Assembly (NCBI GenBank): GCA_040880525.1
Contig: JBBDIG010000024.1
Span: 12,522 to 76,521 of the forward strand
Origin: Bacteroidia bacterium
Lineage (GTDB): Bacteria > Bacteroidota > Bacteroidia > CAILMK01 > JBBDIG01
Reading direction: 5' to 3'
Length of the DNA stretch: 64,000 nucleotides
Positions 4,389 to 23,086 of this stretch are shown here, one piece after another. The notes beneath the pieces are model-generated. The model saw only the letters and a list, made by a program, of their open reading frames with translations, did no database searches and was not told the origin of the DNA. Position 1 is the first letter of the stretch; every line of letters begins with the position of its first letter. Position numbers and translations under genes: made by a program.

Positions 4389-6413
4389 TCAATACCCTAC
4401 CAGCTCCACCAGTGCTTTCTCAAACCGGCTTTTTGCAAGAAAATTCGCTTCAAGCTTAGGTGCCATCGGAACTGGCGTATCCAGGCTCGCTACCCGTTTC
4501 ACCGGTGCGTCTAAATGCTCAAAACAGTGTTCGCTAATCCAGGCTGCGATTTCTCCGCCTATTCCGCCCGTCAGCGTATCCTCATGCAGGATAATCGCTT
4601 TTCCGGTTTTCAGCACAGATTGTTTCACGGCCTCCTGGTCCCACGGCAAAAGGGTGCGTAAGTCAATGAGGTCCGCTGATATTCCGGGGTGTATGTTCAG
4701 CACCTCAAGCGCCCAGTGTACGCCCGCTCCGTAGGTGATGATGCTCACCTCATCTCCGTTGCGCCAGCACCTTGCCTTTCCTAATTCTATGGTATAATAG
4801 TCGTCAAAAATTTCCTCCGAAATGCTGCGGTACAAGGCTTTGTGCTCAAAGAACATCACCGGGTTAGGATCTTCAATACTGGCGGCCAGCAATCCCTTGG
4901 CATCGGAAGGGGAGGAGGGATACACCACCTTCAGGCCGGGAGTATGGAAAAACCAGGCTTCGTTGGACTGCGAATGGAATGGCCCTGCGCCAACGCCTGC
5001 TCCTGTTGGCATCCGCACCACAACATCTGCATTTTGCCCCCAGCGATAATGGATTTTTGCGAGGTTATTTATTATCTGGTTAAAACCGCAGGTTACGAAG
5101 TCTGCAAACTGCATTTCAATTACAGATTTGTAGCCTTCTATGCTTAGACCCAGGCCCATGCCCAGGATTGCTGATTCGCAAAGCGGAGTATTTCGCACCC
5201 GTTCCCGGCCAAACTGCTCAAGAAATCCTTCCGTTACTTTAAATACTCCACCATATTCAGCTACATCCTGCCCCATGATGATGAGGTTCTCGTAGCGTTC
5301 CATGCTCTGCCGCAGCCCGTCAGAAACCGCATCCACCAATCGTTTCTTTGTTTTAGCAGAGGACGCAGGGGCAATAAGAAAATCATTTTCCTGATGAGTG
5401 GCCGCATCTCCCTTCTCCCTTAGAAAAGTATGCTCGTGATAAATATCTGCGAGTTCTGCTGCTGTATGTGCTTCGGCATCTTTTTCATCAAGCGCCTCAT
5501 TCAATGTATTATCAATTTCCGAAGCCATTTCTTTTCGCAAATCTGCAATGGCTTCCAGCGTCAACAACCCTTGTTCCTGTAGATATTCCTGATAATTGCT
5601 GACCGGGTCTTTCTTGCCCCACTCGTCAAATAGCGCCTGCGGTACATACTTCACGCCCGAGGCCTCCTCATGTCCGCGCATTCTGAAGGTCATGCACTCC
5701 AGCAATACCGGACGAGGATTTTCGAGAATTTCTTCCTTTAGAATATTGATGGTGTTAAAGACTTCGAGGATGTTGTTGCCATCAATTTGCACGCCCTCCA
5801 TGCCATACCCGGCTGCCCGGCCTTTCAAATCATCTGTTGCAAATTGCTCCCGCGAAGGCGTGGAGAGGCCATAGCCATTGTTTTCTATAAGAAATATGAT
5901 GGGCAGGTTCCAGACGGCCGCCACATTCAGCGCCTCATGAAATTCCCCCTCGCTGGTTCCGCCCTCTCCCGTAAAGGCCACGGTAATCTTCTTCTCCGCT
6001 TTAAGCTTTTTGCCCAAGGCAATGCCTGCACCCACACTCAACTGCGGCCCCAGGTGGCTAATCATTCCAACGATATGATGGGGCGTGCTGCCGAAGTGAA
6101 ACGAGCGTTCGCGGCCCTTGGAGAAGCCGCTATACTTTCCCTGAAGCTGCGCAAATAGCTTTTCGAGCGGCATTTTCCTGCCAGTAAAAACGCCAAGATT
6201 GCGATGCAAAGGCAGGATAAATTCGTCCTGATCCAGGGCTTGCGTCACGCCCACCGAAATGGCCTCCTGCCCGATGCCCGAAAACCATTTGCTGATGCGA
6301 CCCTTTCGCAGCAGGAGCAGCATTTTTTCTTCGATCATCCTGGGCAGCAGCAGGGCGCGGTATAAGAAAAGCAGCTTTTCATCACTCAGGCTGCCACGGT
6401 CGTAGTTCATCAT
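4389..6413 (-). CDS. 2-oxoacid (branched-chain/pyruvate-type) dehydrogenase E1 component, fused alpha+beta subunits, TPP-dependent
   Basis: The N-terminal half resembles the E1 alpha subunit (TPP-binding region 'GEGGTSEGEFHEALNVAAVWNLPIIFLIENNGYGLSTP'). The C-terminal half resembles the transketolase-like E1 beta subunit ('FADFVTCGFNQIINNLAKIHYRWG', 'VVYPSSPSDAKGLL'). Confidence 0.85.
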   Translation of the reverse strand: MMNYDRGSLSDEKLLFLYRALLLPRMIEEKMLLLLRKGRISKWFSGIGQEAISVGVTQALDQDEFILPLHRNLGVFTGRKMPLEKLFAQLQGKYSGFSKGRERSFHFGSTPHHIVGMISHLGPQLSVGAGIALGKKLKAEKKITVAFTGEGGTSEGEFHEALNVAAVWNLPIIFLIENNGYGLSTPSREQFATDDLKGRAAGYGMEGVQIDGNNILEVFNTINILKEEILENPRPVLLECMTFRMRGHEEASGVKYVPQALFDEWGKKDPVSNYQEYLQEQGLLTLEAIADLRKEMASEIDNTLNEALDEKDAEAHTAAELADIYHEHTFLREKGDAATHQENDFLIAPASSAKTKKRLVDAVSDGLRQSMERYENLIIMGQDVAEYGGVFKVTEGFLEQFGRERVRNTPLCESAILGMGLGLSIEGYKSVIEMQFADFVTCGFNQIINNLAKIHYRWGQNADVVVRMPTGAGVGAGPFHSQSNEAWFFHTPGLKVVYPSSPSDAKGLLAASIEDPNPVMFFEHKALYRSISEEIFDDYYTIELGKARCWRNGDEVSIITYGAGVHWALEVLNIHPGISADLIDLRTLLPWDQEAVKQSVLKTGKAIILHEDTLTGGIGGEIAAWISEHCFEHLDAPVKRVASLDTPVPMAPKLEANFLAKSRFEKALVELVGY

Positions 6414-6543
6414 TGGAATAAGGAAGTTTTTGCGGGGGCAAAATTAGGGAGAAAGCGGGGGAGGAGTGGGGCGGGGTTGGGAAGTCTAAAAGATTAATAT
6501 AAACCATCATTTTAATATGGTTTATATCCTGTGTGTGAAGTAG

Positions 6544-7686
6544 TTAGTTTATTATCACTTTTTTAGTAATAAGTTTTTCATTGATTTTAATTCGAATAAA
6601 ATACATTCCTTTAGCCAATCCTGACACATTGATCTCGTTTTTTTGTCCATATACCTTTACAGTTTTCCCGTTTGAATCCATTATCTCCACCGATTTTGGG
6701 ATTTGAGTGAATTTTAATACGTTGTTAGTTGGGTTTGGAAACAAACCTATTAAATGAGAGGTATTTATTCCAGGCTTTGGAAATGAAACTCCAGAATATC
6801 TCCAAACTCCTTCATACAATGTGCTCACGATTATGGATCTGTTATGAATGACAAAGTCTGAAATAAAATTACCTAAAAAACTTGAGTTGTGAGAGGTCCA
6901 TGTGTTGCCAGTATCGGAAGATAAAAAAATGCTTTTACCCCATGTTCCGCTGAGCATTTTATCACCAGCCATAGTTACAGTTGTCACAAAATCCTCAGTT
7001 ATTCCGTTGCTTGATTTAATCCAAGTCTTTCCATAATTTTCTGATTTATAAAATCCATCTATGGTACCTGCTATTACAAGCGAATCGAAAATTTTTATGG
7101 AATTCGTTTGAATATTAACTCCACTTGGAGGGTTCCACGTGCTTCCTCCATCCGAAGACATAAAAATACCAATGTATGTTCCGGCAAAGATGGCTTGAGA
7201 GTTTATAGCTAATGATAAAGCATTCAAATTTTTTAAACCATTATTGATTGCGGTCCAGCTCGAACCGTTGTTCAATGATTTAAAGACGCCTCCACCAGCC
7301 GTGCCTACATAAAGAATGGAACCTAAAGCTACTATATCCCTTATGTCTAGATTAGTAAGCCCATTGTTTATAGGTGTCCATGACGAACCATTGTTGTCTG
7401 ATAAGAACAGACCATTCCATGTCCCCGCATAGATATTCCCCTGATTGGTTTCGATGACCCTAACTACTCTTTCAGATAGTCCGGTATTTATAGAATTCCA
7501 CGTCAATCCATTATCTGTTGAAAGGAATATTCCGTCAAAATCGGTTCCAACATAAAGATTAGTTTCATCACTTGCTACACATCTGGCTTTAACATCGGAG
7601 AGTCCTAATAAGTCCCATTGTGCAATCGCATGAAGGGAGTAAAAAATTGATAGAAATATTGTTAATAGTTGTTTCATGGCTTTCAA
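6544..7686 (-). CDS. BNR/sortilin-repeat protein with T9SS C-terminal sorting domain
   Basis: It has a signal peptide and repeated 'S.DGG.SW' BNR-like motifs. The C-terminal ~80 aa ('LFPNPTNNVLKF...GMYFIRIKIN') look like a Por secretion CTD. Confidence 0.7.
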   Translation of the reverse strand: MKAMKQLLTIFLSIFYSLHAIAQWDLLGLSDVKARCVASDETNLYVGTDFDGIFLSTDNGLTWNSINTGLSERVVRVIETNQGNIYAGTWNGLFLSDNNGSSWTPINNGLTNLDIRDIVALGSILYVGTAGGGVFKSLNNGSSWTAINNGLKNLNALSLAINSQAIFAGTYIGIFMSSDGGSTWNPPSGVNIQTNSIKIFDSLVIAGTIDGFYKSENYGKTWIKSSNGITEDFVTTVTMAGDKMLSGTWGKSIFLSSDTGNTWTSHNSSFLGNFISDFVIHNRSIIVSTLYEGVWRYSGVSFPKPGINTSHLIGLFPNPTNNVLKFTQIPKSVEIMDSNGKTVKVYGQKNEINVSGLAKGMYFIRIKINEKLITKKVIIN

Positions 7687-7695
7687 TTTTAGCTA

Positions 7696-8229
7696 TTAAT
7701 TTGTAGATAAGTCAAAGCGACCCTCTGTAATATGAATGATCTCCCCCCTGTCGTCAATGGCTGTGAACTCAAAGGTTCCGGCAAGGATGTTATTTTGGAA
7801 ATACTTTACCGTTACCCAGCCTTTATGATCTTCGTTTGTTGAATATTTAGATTCTGCTAAGACATAATTTTCCACAGGAATGTAAAAGTATCCAACGCTT
7901 TTTTCATATTGATTTAATTCCTTCGCAAAATTTAAAGACTCAAAAATGAATTTAAGTGAAATGCTTGCCTTTAGGGGTTTTTCTTCGTTAGCATTTATGT
8001 AGATCAAAGTATCACTACCGGATAATATCCAGTAATAGTCAACTCCTTTCGGACTCATTGGGTTATTATCCATTACACCTTCAGCAATAAATACCTCTCC
8101 GCTTATTTTGCAGGCAAAGATATTTTTCCCTTCCTGGGTGTAAGGAGGCAGTTGCGGTTTGGGCGGTTCCTTTTTGCAGCCACTAACCAGCGTTGCAAGG
8201 AACAGTGTCAGGAGTGCTATTGATTTCAT
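7696..8229 (-). CDS. lipoprotein, hypothetical (tandem paralog 1)
   Basis: 'MKSIALLTLFLATLVSGC' is a lipoprotein signal. It is a paralog of the ORF at 8408-8941. Confidence 0.6.
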   Translation of the reverse strand: MKSIALLTLFLATLVSGCKKEPPKPQLPPYTQEGKNIFACKISGEVFIAEGVMDNNPMSPKGVDYYWILSGSDTLIYINANEEKPLKASISLKFIFESLNFAKELNQYEKSVGYFYIPVENYVLAESKYSTNEDHKGWVTVKYFQNNILAGTFEFTAIDDRGEIIHITEGRFDLSTN

Positions 8230-8407
8230 CTTTTCATGCTTTACTGAGTGAATGAGCGCTATTCAAAATGTACAAATTTGATTTGTGTCGTTTCTTTTGC
8301 ATTATCAGGAATAAGGCGCTCATTCTGAGCAAATGTTTGGTGAGAAAAAGCAAAGCTGTCAAGTATTAAAAAGGTATAAGTTGTTTCATGGATTTCAGTG
8401 TTAGCTA

Positions 8408-8941
8408 TTATTTTGTGAAGAAGTCAAATCGTCCGTCTGTAACATGAATAATCTCTCCCCGGTCGTCAATGGCTGTGAATTCAAATGTTCCTGCAAGGAT
8501 GTTGTTTTGGAAATATTTTACCTGCACCCAGCCCTTATGCTCATCAGTTGTCTTGAAAATTGATTCAGCAAAAACATAATTTTCAACGGGTATGGAGATT
8601 CTGGCTACTGAATTTTCCTTTTGATTTAATTCAAATGTGTCTTTTATTAATGTATAGACAAAATCAACTGATACACTTGCCTCCGTTGGTTTTTTTTCCA
8701 CTGCTCTTATCTCCACTATCGTATCATTTCCCCAAACCATATAGTTATTGTCTGTTCCTTTCGGACTCATGGTATTCTTATCCATTACACCTTCAGCAAC
8801 GAATACTTCCCCATTTATTTTGCAGGCAAAGATATTTTTCCCTTCCTGGGTGTAAGGAGGCAGTTGCGGTTCAGGCAGGTCCTTTTTGCAGCCGTTTATC
8901 AGCGTTGCAAGAAACAGTGTCAGGAGGGCTATTGATTTCAT
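8408..8941 (-). CDS. lipoprotein, hypothetical (tandem paralog 2)
   Basis: 'MKSIALLTLFLATLINGC' is a lipoprotein signal. The N- and C-termini are near-identical to the ORF at 7696-8229. Confidence 0.6.
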   Translation of the reverse strand: MKSIALLTLFLATLINGCKKDLPEPQLPPYTQEGKNIFACKINGEVFVAEGVMDKNTMSPKGTDNNYMVWGNDTIVEIRAVEKKPTEASVSVDFVYTLIKDTFELNQKENSVARISIPVENYVFAESIFKTTDEHKGWVQVKYFQNNILAGTFEFTAIDDRGEIIHVTDGRFDFFTK

Positions 8942-9059
8942 CTTTTCATGCTTTTATGAGTGAATGAGCGTTATTCAAATGTACAAATTTGATTTGTGTC
9001 GTTTCTTTTGCATTGTCAGGAATAAGTCTCTCATCCTGAGCAAATGCTTTTTGAGAAAT

Positions 9060-10150
9060 CTTGAGCGTAGCGAAAGGTGTTGACTGTGGCAATCTGTAGC
9101 ACAACGAGCGTGCGTTGCGCTACAGATCGCCACGTCCTGCTTTTTCCGCTATCGCTCCAAAAGCACTCCTCGCGATGACAGTATGGAGATCGGAAGCCTA
9201 ACCCTAACGTCACTCTGATCGGAGCATAGCGGAGAGAAGAGTCTGGTGCTGAAATAACCGGGCGTGCAGCACACTACCAGATTCTTCGCTATCGCTCAGA
9301 ATGACGAGAGTTTTCCCACGCTGTCATTGCGAAGGAAACGACTTGAGCGCAGCGTAAGGTGTTGACTGTGGCAATCTGTGGCACAACGAGCGTGCGCTGA
9401 GCTACAGATTACCCACAGATCGCCACGTCCCGCTTTTTCCGCTATCGCTCCAAAAGCACTCCTCGCGATGACAGTATTGAGATTGGAAGCCTAACCCTAA
9501 CGTCACTCTGATCGGAGCATAGCGGAGAGAAGAGTCTGGTGCTGAAATAACCGGGCGTGCAGCACACTACCAGATTCTTCGCTATCGCTCAGAATGACGA
9601 GAGTTTTCCCACGCTGTCATTGCGAAGGAAACGACTTGAGCGCAGCGTAAGGTGTTGACTGTGGCAATCTGTGGCACAACGAACGTGCGCTGAACTACAG
9701 ATCACCATCAGATCACCACGTCCTGCTTTTTCCGCTTTCGCTGCAAAAGCATTCCTCGCGATGACAGTATAGAGATAGGCTGCCTAACCCTAACGTCATT
9801 CTGATCGCAGCACAGCGGAGAGAAGAGACTGGTGCTGGAATAACCGGGCGTGCAGCACACTCCCAGATTCTTCGCTATCGCTCAGAATGAGGAGAGTTTT
9901 CCCACGCTGTCATTGCGAAGGAAACGACTTGAGCGCAGCGTAAGGTGTTGACTGTGGCAATCTGTGGCACAACGAGCGTGCGCTGAGCTACAGATCACCA
10001 ACAGATCACCACGTCCCGCTTTCTCCGCTATCGCTCCAAAAGCACTCCTCGCGATGACAGTATGGAGATAGGCTGCCTAACCTCAACGTCACGCTGATCG
10101 GAGCGCAGCGGAGAGAAGAGTCTGGTGCTGGAATAACCGGGCGTGAAGTA
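9060..10150. repeat. tandem array of about 3.7 copies of a ~293-bp structured repeat with nested inverted repeats
   Basis: Unit starts ('cttgagcg[ct]agcg') fall at 9060, 9342, 9635 and 9928. The copies differ by only a few substitutions. Each unit contains long internal inverted repeats (for example 'cgtcactctgatcggagcatagcggagagaagagtctggtgctg' paired with 'cagcacactaccagattcttcgctatcgctcagaatgacg'). Confidence 0.9.
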
Positions 10151-10156
10151 AATTTA

Positions 10157-11065
10157 TTAGAATACCCTGCTAAACATTTGGCCGCCAAGGTCAGTCTTAT
10201 TTTGGTTCAATAAAAGAGTAAGCGCCAGTTGATGGCTCGCAAAAACATAATTATTACTTATAGGAAATTCATAATGGTATGATATCCTGATGACACCTTT
10301 TTGAATTCCGGTGAGTAAATAGATAGCCTCCATACTACCTTCCTCTAAAAAGACGCCTCCCGTAAACCAACCTTTGTGAGCTTGTATGCCGGTTAAAATC
10401 TTCCAGTTTGTTGACTTTTTTTCAAGAAGTACGGATGGGTTGATAACCCAACTTTTATCACCGGACGATAATTTATGCCAATAGCCACCCTGAAATCTAA
10501 AAACCCGGGGCTGTGGATTATCTCCGGAAAAAGTCCTCAGGATTGGACGGAATAAATTGTCCACACTTAATCCCCCGTAAAAGGTGTTTTTATAAAATAA
10601 AATACCAGTTCCCCAATTAATATAACTTTCGTGAGTTTCAAGATACCGGAGGTGGGAGGAAAGTGTTTCATCGGGAATTGTACTTTCAAAATAATTTGCC
10701 TTAACTCCTATGCGCATCGCCATCTTATCTGAAAACGAAATGCGGTAATTATACATCCCACCTACCGTGCTGTGTTTATCGAATGGCCAGCGATGATAGG
10801 AGGCGAAAAAGCCCAGGCCTCCACCCAATTGATCAAAGTGCTGATCATGGCTGCCAATCCATGCATCATTGGTTGCAGACAAAAAGCGTGACCAGCGTTG
10901 CATCCCACTCAGGGTTATCCGCGCATGTTCTGTGGTTCCGGCAAATGCGGGGTTTACCATCACGGGGAACGTCATTGGGTGCAGCAAACCCTCAATTTGA
11001 GCATATAAAGGGTTCGTGGTCAGTAACAGCGTGAATATCAGCAGGATTTTCATTATAGATGTCAT
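10157..11065 (-). CDS. type IX secretion system membrane protein, PorP/SprF family
   Basis: A signal peptide is followed by the PorP/SprF N-terminal signature '...NPAFAGT...LSGMQRWS'. The length is about 300 aa. Confidence 0.65.
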   Translation of the reverse strand: MTSIMKILLIFTLLLTTNPLYAQIEGLLHPMTFPVMVNPAFAGTTEHARITLSGMQRWSRFLSATNDAWIGSHDQHFDQLGGGLGFFASYHRWPFDKHSTVGGMYNYRISFSDKMAMRIGVKANYFESTIPDETLSSHLRYLETHESYINWGTGILFYKNTFYGGLSVDNLFRPILRTFSGDNPQPRVFRFQGGYWHKLSSGDKSWVINPSVLLEKKSTNWKILTGIQAHKGWFTGGVFLEEGSMEAIYLLTGIQKGVIRISYHYEFPISNNYVFASHQLALTLLLNQNKTDLGGQMFSRVF

Positions 11066-11189
11066 TGAGTGGTAAATTATAGGGTATTGAACATGCTTGA
11101 AAAGTTACCTTCTATTTTATAGGGCACAAGGAAGGTGTGAACAAGAAATTTTAATAATGAAGCAGCCGGGAACGCAGCCAACGCATTGT

Positions 11190-11440
11190 AGGATTCAGTA
11201 ATTACCGACAGAGGCTGAAGGACTGGTGGGGCGTGCAGCATGCCAGCATATTCTTCGGTGTCGCGCTGAATGACGAGGGATCCTTTCCTCCTGCCATTGC
11301 GAAGGAAAGGACTTAAGCGCCATCGAAAGGCGTTGACTGTGGCAATCTGTAGCCAAATGGAGGTGCGTTGGTCTACAGAACGCCACGTCCCACTTTCTTC
11401 GCTATCGCTCCGAATGCGGTCTTCGCGATGACATTACTGC
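11190..11440. repeat. diverged single copy of the same ~293-bp repeat family
   Basis: It shares 'gcattgcgaaggaaaggacttaagcgcc...ggcgttgactgtggcaatctgtagcc...cgccacgtcccactttcttcgctatcgctcc' with the array units. Confidence 0.75.
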
Positions 11441-11539
11441 GTCAGGCTGTGGCTTTTGTGGGAAAGATCAGGGATAAAGGGTTGAGGAATGTGAGCATTA
11501 ATTCCAGCAGGCGCCTAAATGATGCTAACGATCCTAAAC

Positions 11540-11926
11540 TCACCCCGCCACCATTCCCGCCACAACCTTCCCGCCCCAAACGGCCAGGATGCAGAGGAAT
11601 ACCTGCGCAGCTACGTATGCGGCAAAAGTGATCCAGCGGCCATGTTCCAGCATTTCGAATGACTCGAAGGCAAAGGAGGACATCGTGGTAAGGGAGCCAC
11701 AGAAACCCAGCGCTACCAGCATAAATTGTCGTTCTGAAAACAAACTGAATTGCAGGAAACCAAAAGCCATGATGCCGAAAAGGAAACTTCCCAGGAGGTT
11801 GACTGTGAGGGTTCCGAATGGCTTGTGCGGGAAATGGCCATGCATAAAATTGCTGATAAGCACCCGGAAAATGGCTCCGAAGAATCCTCCGGTTCCTATG
11901 ATCAGCAGGTTCATCAACGTGTTCAT
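11540..11926 (-). CDS. crcB: fluoride efflux channel CrcB/Fluc
   Basis: 'MNTLMNLLIIGTGGFFGAIFR...GFCGSLTTMSSF' is the CrcB signature. The start overlaps the upstream phosphatase gene by 4 bp (ATGA). Confidence 0.85.
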   Translation of the reverse strand: MNTLMNLLIIGTGGFFGAIFRVLISNFMHGHFPHKPFGTLTVNLLGSFLFGIMAFGFLQFSLFSERQFMLVALGFCGSLTTMSSFAFESFEMLEHGRWITFAAYVAAQVFLCILAVWGGKVVAGMVAG

Positions 11927-12558
11927 TCTTCTGCGTTTACCAGAATTTGGTTGAGGTGGGCGATGCAATTCTCCCGTGCAAGGGTTCGTCTTCCATCAGG
12001 TGAGATCGTAACCTGATACAGTCCAAGATTATGGTGCCTGAACTGCGACATATTTTGAAGAGGAAGCTGCAACAATTGACATAGGAAAATACGCATGGCC
12101 CGGCCATGCATACATACCAGTACGTTTTCATCATCCTCTCGCTGCATGATGAGGTCAATGACTTTTCGTTGACGCTTTGCTACGTCATCCGGGCTTTCTC
12201 CACCTTCTATCCCGTGGTGGGTTTCCCCCTTTTGCCACTTTATCACCAGTTCCTCATAATACGTTTTATGCAAATTGCTGATATGGCGTCCTTCAAAAGT
12301 GCCCCAGGAAATTTCATTTAGTCCGGGATGGCGTTCCGTAATTATATTATGGCCGGCAAAGGATTTTACAGATTCCTGTGATCTGAGTAGGGAGGAAACA
12401 TAGATTCTTGAGAATGGAATATGGCTATAATGATTGTAGAATGCCTCAGCTTGTTGCCGGCCTTTCTCATTCAGGCTCGTATCAATCCCAGAGCCCTGGA
12501 CGCAGCCAAGCCTGTTGTACTCCGTTTCTCCGTGCCTGATGATGAATATATTCTGCAT
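11923..12558 (-). CDS. histidine phosphatase family protein (phosphoglycerate-mutase-like)
   Basis: The N-terminus reads 'IFIIRHGETEYN', the RHG catalytic motif. Confidence 0.75.
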   Translation of the reverse strand: MQNIFIIRHGETEYNRLGCVQGSGIDTSLNEKGRQQAEAFYNHYSHIPFSRIYVSSLLRSQESVKSFAGHNIITERHPGLNEISWGTFEGRHISNLHKTYYEELVIKWQKGETHHGIEGGESPDDVAKRQRKVIDLIMQREDDENVLVCMHGRAMRIFLCQLLQLPLQNMSQFRHHNLGLYQVTISPDGRRTLARENCIAHLNQILVNAEE

Positions 12559-22149: not shown

Positions 22150-22237
22150 ATAAAAACAGGATTTACCATAGTTATGAATTAATATACTATTGTTAATATT
22201 TTGTGGTAAAGTAGTTTTGTTAAAAATATTAATCAAA

Positions 22238-23086
22238 ATGAAACTACGATACTTACTTCTTTCCCTGGCCCTGATCCCGGGGTACTCACTTTTGCACGGA
22301 CAAACCTCATTGCCTTATTACTCAGCCTTTGACGATGCTTCGCAGCAGGACGGCTGGGAGGAATACGAAACGGGCACAGACAGCGATCCTTACCACTGGA
22401 ATTTTGCATCATTTGCAGCCTACTCCCCTCCACATAGCCTGAATCACAACTATCCTGTGGGCGGCTCGGAGCGCACCGATGACTGGTTTGTATCACCCGA
22501 ATTCGATTTTAGCAATGGCGCTACTATAGATTCATTGCGGTATGTTTTCACAGGTTTCGGTACACCCATGGACGGAGATACGATCGCGATCTATCTTATT
22601 AATGGTTCGAAAGATCCGGAGACAGCCACAACCCGCACCATTCTTTACAATTTTACTGACAGCACCTATGAGAATGATAATGTTTGGCGAAAGCTGGAGG
22701 CATTGAATATTCCCGCCACCAGCGGACAAAGCCACATAGCATTCCGTTATACCACCATTGTGAACTGGCTGGATGTGAGACTGGATAATTTAAAGATCAG
22801 CGAAAAGCCCACTGGTATAAATGAACCGGCAGCAATCAATGAGGCGATTACTATATATCCAAATCCGGTTATCACAGAATTAACGGTAGCGTGGAATTTC
22901 AGATCTGAAGGAGCCACCATTACGCTGTTCAATATGAATGGAAAAGTGATGCAGCGCCAATTGATCGCAGGAGAATCTCAGCAGAAGCTTATCCTGGAAA
23001 CCGGTGGGTTAAAGCCGGGAATATATATGTTACAGGTTACCGGCACGTCAGGCCGTGTTTTTTCCAGAAGATTTTTGAAACAATAA
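22238..23086 (+). CDS. secreted protein with T9SS C-terminal sorting domain
   Basis: It has a signal peptide 'MKLRYLLLSLALIPGYSLLHGQ'. The C-terminal CTD reads 'ITIYPNPVITELTV...GIYMLQVTGTSGRVFSRRFLK'. Confidence 0.65.
   Translation: MKLRYLLLSLALIPGYSLLHGQTSLPYYSAFDDASQQDGWEEYETGTDSDPYHWNFASFAAYSPPHSLNHNYPVGGSERTDDWFVSPEFDFSNGATIDSLRYVFTGFGTPMDGDTIAIYLINGSKDPETATTRTILYNFTDSTYENDNVWRKLEALNIPATSGQSHIAFRYTTIVNWLDVRLDNLKISEKPTGINEPAAINEAITIYPNPVITELTVAWNFRSEGATITLFNMNGKVMQRQLIAGESQQKLILETGGLKPGIYMLQVTGTSGRVFSRRFLKQ

Follow-up and report, generated by a model that had tools for sequence, protein, structure and literature searches.

A tandem pair of DUF6252-related lipoprotein genes with ends probably homogenised by recombination around older, distinct cores

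The duplicated lipoprotein genes and their T9SS cargo neighbour

Two tandem lipoprotein genes, here called A and B, lie in the 64-kb window (the whole stretch of DNA that we analysed), and A is the copy closest to a neighbouring T9SS cargo gene (Table 1). Both proteins match the curated model of the Riean_0653 family (NF052634), A with 122.9 bits over residues 1-174 (model positions 1-174 of 176) and B with 124.1 bits. Both scores exceed the curated cutoff of 57 bits, and both matches run end to end. Matches to Pfam PF19765 (DUF6252) cover the C-terminal part only and stay below the gathering threshold of 27.2 (22.1 bits for A and 22.3 bits for B). Profile searches with the window proteins return many PF19765-carrying proteins, and on sequence A and B are homologous to DUF6252 proteins, though outside the PF19765 threshold.

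The lipobox reads MKSIALLTLFLATLVSG in A and ...LING in B, each followed by Cys18, a residue that is at least 90% conserved in an alignment of 118 sequences. By these marks, A and B are lipoproteins with a predicted signal peptide and a lipidated Cys18. The linker motif LPPyTQEGKN is conserved in the family. The AlphaFold model of A (pLDDT 92.5) contains 11 β-strands and a helix at residues 3-14, and the predicted fold is a small up-and-down β-barrel that is most similar to LpqH. An exact-sequence look-up of protein A gave no match, and a PDB sequence search returned nothing meaningful. PADLOC gave no match, which implies that no known defence system is involved.

Table 1. Features of the duplicated locus, in window coordinates.
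Feature	Position	Strand	Description
Downstream cargo gene	6544..7677	-	BNR/Sortilin-type β-propeller with T9SS C-terminal sorting domain
Repeat unit, copy 1	7667..8347		3′ flank, gene A and A upstream region
Gene A (WD077_06675, P0004)	7696..8229	-	177-aa lipoprotein ORF, Riean_0653/DUF6252 family
Longest identical run of A and B, 57 nt	8103..8159 = 8815-8871	-	codons 24-42
A upstream region	8230..8347	-	91.5% identical to B upstream region
Filler at junction of the two units, 31 nt	8348..8378		6/31, unlike either flank
Repeat unit, copy 2	8379..9058		remnant flank, gene B and B upstream region
Remnant of A-to-cargo-gene junction	8379..8407	-	26/29 against 7667-7695
Gene B (WD077_06680, P0001)	8408..8941	-	177-aa paralogue ORF, 69% identical to A
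B upstream region	8942..9058	-	exact Bacteroidota -7 consensus TAnnTTTG

The tandem duplication that a sequence-only reading of this DNA had proposed is real. Direct repeats are spaced 712 nt apart, and a gapped alignment delimits two units that each include about 118 nt of upstream DNA. Copies 1 and 2 share 26/29 positions of the 3′ flank, 403/534 of the CDS, and 108/118 of the upstream region, and identity just beyond the unit is at chance level (9/30 and 6/31). The unit takes in the first 11 nt of the cargo gene, whose start is likely the ATG at 7677 rather than the TTG at 7686. Correspondingly, the remnant 3′ of copy B consists of an 18-nt spacer and ATGAAACAACT, these same first 11 nt, and was brought along with the duplication. 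The string ttgtttcatgg, correctly picked out before as a trace of the T9SS gene's start, lies at 7669-7679 and 8381-8391 and contains the reverse-complemented ATG and the cargo gene's first 11 nt. The ORF that begins in the remnant has only 7 codons. That a non-functional remnant is still so well preserved (26/29) is more simply explained if the duplication took place in situ fairly recently than if it is ancient. The BNR cargo gene itself shares only the T9SS C-terminal domain with the downstream genes at homologous loci, except for one propeller at locus L048 that is 23% identical, so there is no conserved lipoprotein-propeller pairing.

Upstream of B, the match to the -7 consensus (TACATTTG) lies at 8983-8976, 34 nt 5′ of the ATG, and the -7-like box upstream of A carries a 1-nt insertion (TACATTTTG). 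The A upstream region also holds a terminator-like hairpin at 8331-8317, and a promoter may lie in this region. However, the window shows no enrichment of the Bacteroidota -7 motif, which makes the promoter reading weak, and a sigma-70 promoter scan did not rise above shuffled expectation. Both A and B are probably expressed, since each is intact, under purifying selection, and provided with its own upstream region. An Rfam search of 6000-12500 gave only a sub-threshold chance match to a miRNA. Inverted repeats bracketing the repeat unit were not found, nor were short tandem repeats in 7000-9060, and programmed variation by a DGR or an invertible element was rejected on these grounds.

Identity and synonymous divergence along the two genes

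A and B are identical at 122/177 residues, with 82-89% identity in the first ~62 and last ~45 residues and 44% in residues 63-132, which bears out the mosaic of near-identical ends and divergent middle that had been described from sequence alone. Conserved ends around a variable core also characterise 118 distant homologues, and the conserved N and C motifs are still present in homologues at about 30% identity. Per strand, the family's top-residue frequency is 0.45-0.73 for b1, b2, b9, b10, and b11 and 0.27-0.46 for b3-b8; A and B agree at 38/44 positions in the conserved strands compared to 20/47 in the variable strands. Between genomes, pN at the ends is 0.07-0.15 for the copies on an independent metagenome contig (L001) and 0.17-0.27 for a more distant copy (L002), and pN in the middle is 0.25-0.38. 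As judged from these alignments, much of the protein-level mosaic is the plain conservation profile of the whole family, in which purifying selection holds the linker and strands b1, b2, b9, b10, and b11 near-constant and lets b3-b8 drift. The variable part, for which a surface-exposed middle had been suggested, is not a surface loop but comprises six of the eleven β-strands in the AlphaFold model. Were strand b1 to meet b11 and close the barrel, as happens in the 8-stranded barrels that it resembles, the conserved strands would form one contiguous face, an argument drawn from topology rather than from coordinates.

Compared codon by codon, the two genes show synonymous divergence that is heterogeneous along their length and not uniform. 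pS between A and B is 0.26 in the N-end, 0.68 in the middle, and 0.47 in the C-end, and codons at identical residues differ at 7/48, 14/33, and 12/36 positions, respectively. The N-end differs from the middle in these counts (p=0.009), the C-terminal segment does not differ significantly from the middle, and all of the counts are small, because the window comparison is of two sequences. Between genomes, pS in the N segment is 0.68-0.78, which argues against codon-level constraint. Signal peptide identity is 89% within the genome compared to 41-50% between genomes.

Trees of the separate segments are discordant. The 5′ segment unites A with B (100% bootstrap) and L001_1 with L001_2 (93%). In the middle segment A and B are never placed together; L001_2 joins P0003 (100%), and A falls with P0007 and P0008 (65-78%). 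The C-terminal segment reaches only 73% bootstrap and is not significant. Moreover, the middle of B is 60-61% identical to other genomes' genes compared to 44% to A. Only about nine close homologues exist, several of them on short contigs; searching metagenomes for genes close to B yielded only two matches, both distant, and a scan of species genomes gave no homologue above about 35% identity. The signs of concerted evolution were found together: in part of the gene the paralogues of one genome resemble each other more than types shared between genomes, the segment trees are discordant, and 5′ synonymous divergence is lowered.

We conclude, with a probability of roughly 0.7, that the A/B mosaic arose from ends homogenised by recombination and held by family-wide constraint, on older distinct cores. 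Recombination between family members is supported statistically by the synonymous counts and trees; gene conversion would have relied on homology in the flanks and conserved ends and would have kept the promoter region, signal peptide, and N-terminal third alike within the genome. The C-terminal quarter may have been kept similar in the same way, less clearly, and the 57-nt identical run is a putative core of a conversion tract. The cores would be different and much older sequence types, that of B resembling L001_1 and P0006 and that of A nearest to the P0007/P0008 type. Conversion at the ends was one of two explanations offered in the sequence-only reading, and the pS gradient, the N-end contrast, and the discordant trees support it. 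By contrast, the description of the duplication as recent does not hold for the genes as a whole, where dS is about 0.75, the middle is saturated at synonymous sites, and the core of B is nearer to other genomes' genes.

A young in-situ duplication could still underlie the pair if recombination with a divergent family member (a further paralogue or DNA of foreign origin) had later overwritten the core, roughly codons 60-135, in one of the copies, with the conserved ends acting as homology arms in a cassette-exchange-like manner. This explanation is consistent with non-coding flanks that are only 8-10% diverged, the functionless cargo-start remnant included, and with an N-terminal synonymous divergence (7/48) of the same order. 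It is also consistent with the core of A, an outlier with pN of 0.36-0.38 to everything that groups with the P0007/P0008 type, of which P0008 is in the same genome. We nonetheless consider it unlikely. No plausible donor was found, the core of P0008 being 48% identical to that of A, and the saturation of the ends between genomes (pS 0.68-0.78) implies that the long identical stretches needed for recombination with foreign DNA would be rare. In addition, the C-terminal synonymous divergence (12/36) exceeds expectation for a young duplicate, and the L001 pair independently shows ends that group by genome and cores that group by type, for which recurrent homogenisation of the ends is simpler. We therefore favour old distinct cores with homogenised ends over a younger duplication with core replacement.

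Two further explanations dispense with recombination, and dN/dS bears on both (0.27 in the middle and 0.1-0.2 at the ends). A single old duplication, followed only by purifying selection that is stronger on the ends than on the middle, agrees with dN/dS below 1 everywhere and with the fit of the mosaic to the family-wide conservation profile. However, it predicts uniform synonymous and non-coding divergence where the observed divergence is non-uniform; the signal peptide and 5′ segment group by genome (100% and 93% bootstrap) and the cores do not; and the same codons vary freely between genomes. We regard it as highly improbable. Equally little credence can be given to the second explanation in the sequence-only reading, in which positive, diversifying selection acted on an exposed middle segment after a recent duplication. 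Radical replacements in b3-b8 do often alternate with hydrophobic positions that are conserved, the pattern expected of outward-facing side chains, and highly variable cores occur in other arrays of the family too. But the synonymous saturation of the middle (pS 0.68; 14/33 codons at identical residues) is not producible by selection on the protein, and the core of B is nearer to other genomes' genes than to the core of A. Positive selection was not detected at a dN/dS of about 0.27, in a test weakened by dS saturation, and was rejected as the main cause on the basis of this ratio and the saturated synonymous sites.

An assembly artefact, in which two strain variants were set in tandem, is scarcely credible and was rejected, although the sequence comes from a MAG. 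Between the copies, 25% of the CDS positions are different, which together with the tandem pair on L001 makes an assembly duplicate very unlikely; the junction is defined by the 31-nt filler and the carried-along remnant, and tandem arrays occur in 26/78 species, isolate genomes included. Taken as a whole, the sequence-only reading was supported on the duplication, the mosaic, and conversion at the ends, was not supported on recency and diversifying selection, and missed the family-wide profile.

Tandem arrays and esterase neighbours across the family

At 50% identity this large family comprises about 5,500 clusters, and NF052634 is also matched by a Bergeyella homologue and by members of large arrays. 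Tandem arrays of 2-10 copies were found at 26 of the 78 species loci, some of them in isolate genomes, and contig L001 carries a tandem pair of close homologues of A and B. The same mosaic identity profile was present in the eight larger arrays examined; at L059, for example, identity is 0.93-1.00 in the N-end, 0.22-0.34 in the middle, and 0.96-0.98 in the C-end. N-end synonymous divergence was lower than that of the middle in 7/7 arrays tested, the window pair included, with a weak contrast in some arrays (e.g., L073). The window pair is thus an ordinary member of a pattern that recurs in the family and is not special to this locus. Taken alone, it is a small, standard example of concerted evolution in a tandem gene pair and adds little beyond correcting the claim of recency.

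A T9SS-secreted PGAP1-like esterase adjoins the lipoprotein gene or array at 36/78 loci (34/64 of those evaluable). The neighbour homologue is a protein of about 1000 aa with a T9SS C-terminal domain and a PGAP1/DUF676 α/β-hydrolase domain, and it is present in Bergeyella and beside P0008, the third paralogue in the same genome, where it has 998 aa (L005 1292-4288). No esterase homologue was found near the window pair within the 64-kb window, and the functional inference is therefore not directly applicable to this pair. From this genomic context, the family may consist of partner-binding lipoproteins of T9SS-secreted PGAP1-like serine esterases, in which the conserved barrel face would provide a common contact and the variable face would determine specificity. 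The window pair would then be an orphan whose esterase neighbour was lost or never present and which adjoins an unrelated T9SS cargo gene.

Transposon mutants of Riemerella that lack Riean_0653 are less haemolytic, complementation restores haemolysis, and the recombinant protein is inactive (PMC7881567). This haemolysis work is the only experiment on the family, and it leaves the binding partner unstated. We propose, as a tentative and rather doubtful reading, that Riean_0653/DUF6252 lipoproteins are the specificity-bearing partners of a widespread class of T9SS-secreted PGAP1-like esterases, either as immunity proteins or inhibitors or as surface receptors or activators. If this proposal is true, the arrays would form a polymorphic repertoire, comparable to T6SS effector-immunity arrays, in which a homogenised conserved half-barrel is combined with ancient, exchangeable variable half-barrels. 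The window pair would then represent orphan genes for protection against, or use of, the esterases of other cells.

No paper was found in the literature on the regular association of lipoprotein arrays with esterases or on a class of esterase partners. The lipoprotein-esterase link at the family level is a more interesting lead than the window pair. If the lipoproteins are cognate partners, the link would offer a handle on the role of a common class of T9SS cargo, on the unexplained Riean_0653 haemolysis phenotype in Riemerella, and on whether T9SS substrates have immunity-like or receptor-like repertoires.

Comparison with known systems

The window proteins share size, lipoprotein signal, and N and C motifs with Riean_0653 of Riemerella anatipestifer (NF052634). 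However, the haemolysis phenotype comes from a distant species and is not transferable to the window proteins, and the typical esterase neighbour of the family is absent beside the pair.

Across the family, the gene for a small lipoprotein, frequently in several tandem copies, directly adjoins the gene of a secreted PGAP1-like or α/β-hydrolase esterase, an arrangement that resembles the T6SS lipase pairs Tle/Tli (PMC6099711). Such pairs include the PGAP1-like TplE (Tle4) with Tli4 and the outer-membrane lipoprotein Tli1, and three tandem immunity genes (PA5086-5088) adjoin PldB. Orphan copies without an effector occur, as with the window pair. In contrast, Tle/Tli pairs use the T6SS and the esterases of this family use the T9SS. 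Moreover, loss of the Riemerella lipoprotein lowers haemolysis and does not harm the cell, so an accessory or anchoring role fits at least as well as immunity. No sequence or fold relationship of A or B to a known Tli family was found, and where a Tli gene adjoins its cognate secreted lipase or esterase, the gene downstream of the window pair encodes a BNR propeller.

The barrel predicted here resembles LpqH, the mycobacterial 19-kDa lipoprotein, which is likewise a lipid-anchored small antiparallel β-barrel; the barrel lobes of TbpB, LbpB, HpuA, and hemophilin and the barrel of YceI are alike as well. Sequence identity of LpqH and the other barrels to the window model is only 3-14%, which gives no evidence of common ancestry, and the model has 11 strands compared to 8 in closed barrels.

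The Vlp and Vsp proteins of mycoplasmas form tandem surface-protein families in which the 5′ ends and signal peptides are conserved and the mature parts vary. The window pair resembles them in its tandem genes, in upstream regions and signal peptides that are near-identical within the genome, and in divergent mature cores. It differs from them in having no visible phase-variation machinery (neither an invertible element nor a simple-sequence tract), and the variable part of A and B is predicted to be a folded half-barrel rather than a repetitive tail.

Structure of the duplicated unit

Genes A and B (WD077_06675 and WD077_06680; source, a Bacteroidia MAG), which encode paralogous lipoproteins, lie in direct repeats that a repeat finder spaced 712 nt apart. 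Between the two units, identity is 26/29 in the 3' flank, 403/534 nt in the coding sequence, and 108/118 in the 118 nt that precede the start codons, and it falls to chance level (9/30 and 6/31) outside the unit edges. Included in the 3' end of the unit are an 18-nt spacer and 11 nt (ATGAAACAACT) from the start of the next gene (the cargo gene), whose 380-aa product has a BNR/Sortilin-type beta-propeller and a T9SS C-terminal sorting domain. The dead remnant of this junction behind gene B shows in-situ duplication of an A-type unit that adjoined the cargo gene. The tandem duplication of a lipoprotein gene unit proposed in the sequence-only reading is real.

Features of the window and of esterase loci outside it
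Feature	Position	Strand	Remark
Gene A	7696-8229	minus	intact 177-codon ORF
Gene B	8408-8941	minus	intact 177-codon ORF; head to tail with A
Repeat unit copies	7667-8347 and 8379-9058		bounds from gapped alignment of both units
Remnant of A/cargo-gene junction	8379-8407		dead; behind gene B
Filler, 31 nt	8348-8378		joins the two repeat units
-7 site of B	8983-8976	minus	TACATTTG; 34 nt 5' of ATG
-7 site of A	8271-8263	minus	TACATTTTG
Terminator-like hairpin	8331-8317		only between B and A
293-bp tandem repeat	9060-10145		partial copy near 11329-11350
21-nt hairpin in 293-bp repeat	9086-9106 / 9113-9133
PorP/SprF-family gene	10157-11065	minus	just past 293-bp repeat array
ORF with T9SS sorting domain	22190-23086	plus	domain matches residues 840-997 of L005 esterase
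Esterase genes (examples)	L059 8783-12486; L038 7358-10357; L005 1292-4288
Esterase stubs	L002 10515-10739; L004 810-1154
Split esterase (example)	L007 845-1612 and 2229-4625
Bergeyella PorP/SprF gene	L086 10889-11860

The mechanically called ORF of the cargo gene begins at TTG 7686 (minus strand); a start at ATG 7677 (MKQLLTIF...) is more likely, and this ATG is the codon carried into the duplicated remnant. The G+C of both lipoprotein genes (0.38-0.39) is below the window mean (0.453). Upstream of B lies an exact Bacteroidota -7 consensus, and the homologous site of A contains a 1-nt insertion. Judged from sequence, expression may differ between the copies.

The upstream edge of repeat unit 2 is exactly where a GC-rich (0.535 vs 0.453 for the window) 293-bp tandem repeat of 3.7 copies with 93% matches begins. 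This tandem repeat matched no Rfam family and was absent from 89/89 loci compared; the 11-mer GCTCAGAATGA is common to this repeat and the gene A upstream region. The PorP/SprF-family gene beyond it encodes a T9SS membrane protein, and the presence of such a gene near the Bergeyella lipoprotein-esterase locus may be coincidence.

Divergence of A and B and discordant trees

Proteins A and B are identical at 122/177 residues, with about 85-89% identity in residues 1-62 (N-end), 44% in 63-132 (middle), and 82% in 133-177 (C-end). The earlier description of conserved ends and a divergent middle was thus correct in every particular. By the Nei-Gojobori method, dS, dN, and dN/dS were 0.75, 0.21, and 0.29 for the whole gene; 0.32, 0.065, and 0.20 for the N-end; 1.78 (saturated), 0.49, and 0.27 for the middle; and 0.75, 0.089, and 0.12 for the C-end. 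The whole-gene dS and the saturated middle imply that the pair is not, as had been proposed, recent as a whole. The ratios (0.12-0.29) show no sign of positive selection and provide no evidence for the suggested diversifying selection, although the middle ratio is unreliable because dS is saturated.

A cleaner measure is the number of conserved residues that the two genes encode with different codons. The N-end had 7/48 such differences, the middle 14/33, and the C-end 12/36; the N-end differed from the middle (Fisher p=0.009), and the C-end did not. By this codon-level comparison, silent divergence is non-uniform along the gene, contrary to the uniform nucleotide divergence that the sequence-only reading had named as its possible refutation. 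Selection at the protein level cannot produce such a pattern, and codon-level constraint was ruled out as the cause of the low N-end value, because the same N-terminal codons have pS of 0.68-0.78 between genomes.

There are few close homologues, namely a tandem pair on one JGI contig (L001) and proteins P0003, P0006 (loci L002-L004), P0007, and P0009. The third paralogue of the genome, P0008 (WD077_03425), is 46% identical and lies on another contig. In bootstrapped neighbour-joining trees of the three gene segments, A grouped with B for codons 1-62 (100%, nucleotides), as did the two L001 genes with each other (93%), and A grouped with B for codons 133-177 (73%). For codons 63-132, A and B were never together; instead, L001_2 grouped with P0003 (100%) and A with P0007 and P0008 (65-78%), and B was placed with L001_1 and P0006. 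Signal peptides are 89% identical within the genome vs 41-50% between genomes. The middle of A is an outlier (pN 0.36-0.38 to every compared gene), and the middle of B is 60-61% identical to foreign genes vs 44% to A. The ends thus sort by genome, and the cores by older types. This discordance is the signature of recombination, most simply of gene conversion between tandem paralogues. Of the conversion earlier suggested for both ends, the 5' end is supported by the low silent divergence and the 100% grouping, but the C-end is indistinguishable from the middle by silent differences.

The cores may be old and the ends homogenised, a reading favoured by the independent occurrence of the pattern in L001 and by the failure to find a donor for core replacement. 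Alternatively, the pair may include a younger in-situ duplicate in which one core was replaced, a reading favoured by the preserved junction remnant.

Family profile, fold, and arrays

A and B have full-length hits to NCBIfam NF052634 ('Riean_0653 family'; 123-124 bits; cutoff 57) and fall just under the Pfam DUF6252 threshold (22 bits vs 27.2); NF052634 is also matched by Bergeyella homologues and members of large arrays. An exhaustive profile search gave a family size of 5,514 clusters (50% identity) at E<=1e-3. In alignments of 15 and 118 homologues, with identities as low as about 25-30%, an N-terminal block (LPPxTQEGKNxFxCKxNGE) and a C-terminal block (G.V...I.(A/S)GTFEF...(I/V)T(D/E)GRFD) are conserved, and the interior between them is poorly conserved. 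The A/B mosaic is thus at the same time the conservation profile of the whole family.

The AlphaFold model of A (pLDDT 92.5, pTM 0.83) has a helix at 3-14 followed by 11 beta-strands (b1-b11). Mapped onto this model, the top-residue frequency in the family is 0.74 in the linker, 0.66 in b1, 0.45 in b2, 0.27-0.46 in b3-b8, 0.53 in b9, 0.67 in b10, and 0.73 in b11. A and B are identical at 38/44 positions in b1, b2, b9, b10, and b11 vs 20/47 in b3-b8, which implies that the variable segment, earlier pictured as a surface-exposed middle, is about half of the barrel and no loop. Within b4 and b5, conserved hydrophobic positions and radical changes tend to alternate. A barrel closed between b1 and b11 would bring the conserved strands together as one contiguous face.

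Among 78 loci from a one-genome-per-species collection, 26 contained arrays (at least 2 full-length same-strand copies), the largest being L020 (Wandonia haliotis) and L073 with 10 copies each and L059 with 7. Mean pairwise identity along the protein showed the pattern of the window pair in 8/8 larger arrays examined. Identity in L059 was 0.93-1.00 in the first quarter including the signal peptide, 0.22-0.34 in the middle, and 0.96-0.98 at the end, and profiles were similar in L038, L073, L018, and L020. In 7/7 arrays tested, the N-end had fewer silent codon differences than the middle, weakly so in some (e.g. L073); the N-end, middle, and C-end values were 0.12, 0.50, and 0.10 in L059 and 0.29, 0.55, and 0.18 in the L001 pair (p=0.018 and 0.001). 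This shared behaviour implies that the window pair is an ordinary small case of a recurrent family pattern; the pair is a member of a known family showing a known evolutionary mechanism. From comparative context beyond the window, the coupling of the family to T9SS esterases and its half-conserved, half-variable barrel arrays would merit follow-up.

Esterase neighbours and comparison with T6SS pairs

The gene or array is usually followed directly by a large same-strand ORF. Among 40 such downstream proteins, serine-esterase models of the PGAP1-like type are matched by 15 and those of DUF676 by 12, and 21 have a T9SS sorting domain, with others cut by contig ends; the consensus of these proteins includes GxSMGG. 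An iterated search that started from the 998-aa protein encoded beside P0008, in which an adjacent homologue was counted if the catalytic region was included, found one at 36/78 loci and at 34/64 of those with enough flanking sequence. This neighbour, a protein of ~1000 aa with a T9SS CTD and a PGAP1-like/DUF676 alpha/beta-hydrolase domain, directly adjoins Riean_0653-family genes or arrays. Bergeyella has the same arrangement, with a fragmented esterase gene. At L006, L007, L010, L014, and L029, the first ~245 esterase-like residues form a separate ORF upstream of the lipoprotein gene and residues ~260-996 come after it, so that the lipoprotein gene lies between two esterase parts that are fused elsewhere.

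No esterase homologue was found in the 64-kb window, where matches were confined to the sorting domains encoded by two cargo genes, which implies that A and B are orphan copies; P0008 keeps its esterase neighbour. P0006, which of the single-copy relatives is closest to A and B, adjoins only a stub, in which the signal peptide and ~45 residues of the N-terminus lead directly into the T9SS sorting domain, implying internal deletion of the esterase gene.

A literature search found a single experimental paper on the family, in which transposon insertions in Riean_0653 greatly reduced haemolysis by R. anatipestifer, complementation restored it, and the recombinant protein was not haemolytic (PMC7881567); no publication on DUF6252, or on partner lipoproteins of T9SS esterases, was found. 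The nearest functional analogy for the lipoprotein/esterase pairing is provided by the Tle/Tli pairs of the T6SS, which include PGAP1-like TplE with Tli4, the lipoprotein Tli1, and the tandem immunity genes PA5086-5088 (PMC6099711). In sequence, fold, and gene context, the window pair shows none of the defining features of the Tle/Tli family. The Riemerella phenotype fits immunity no better than it fits an accessory or anchoring role.
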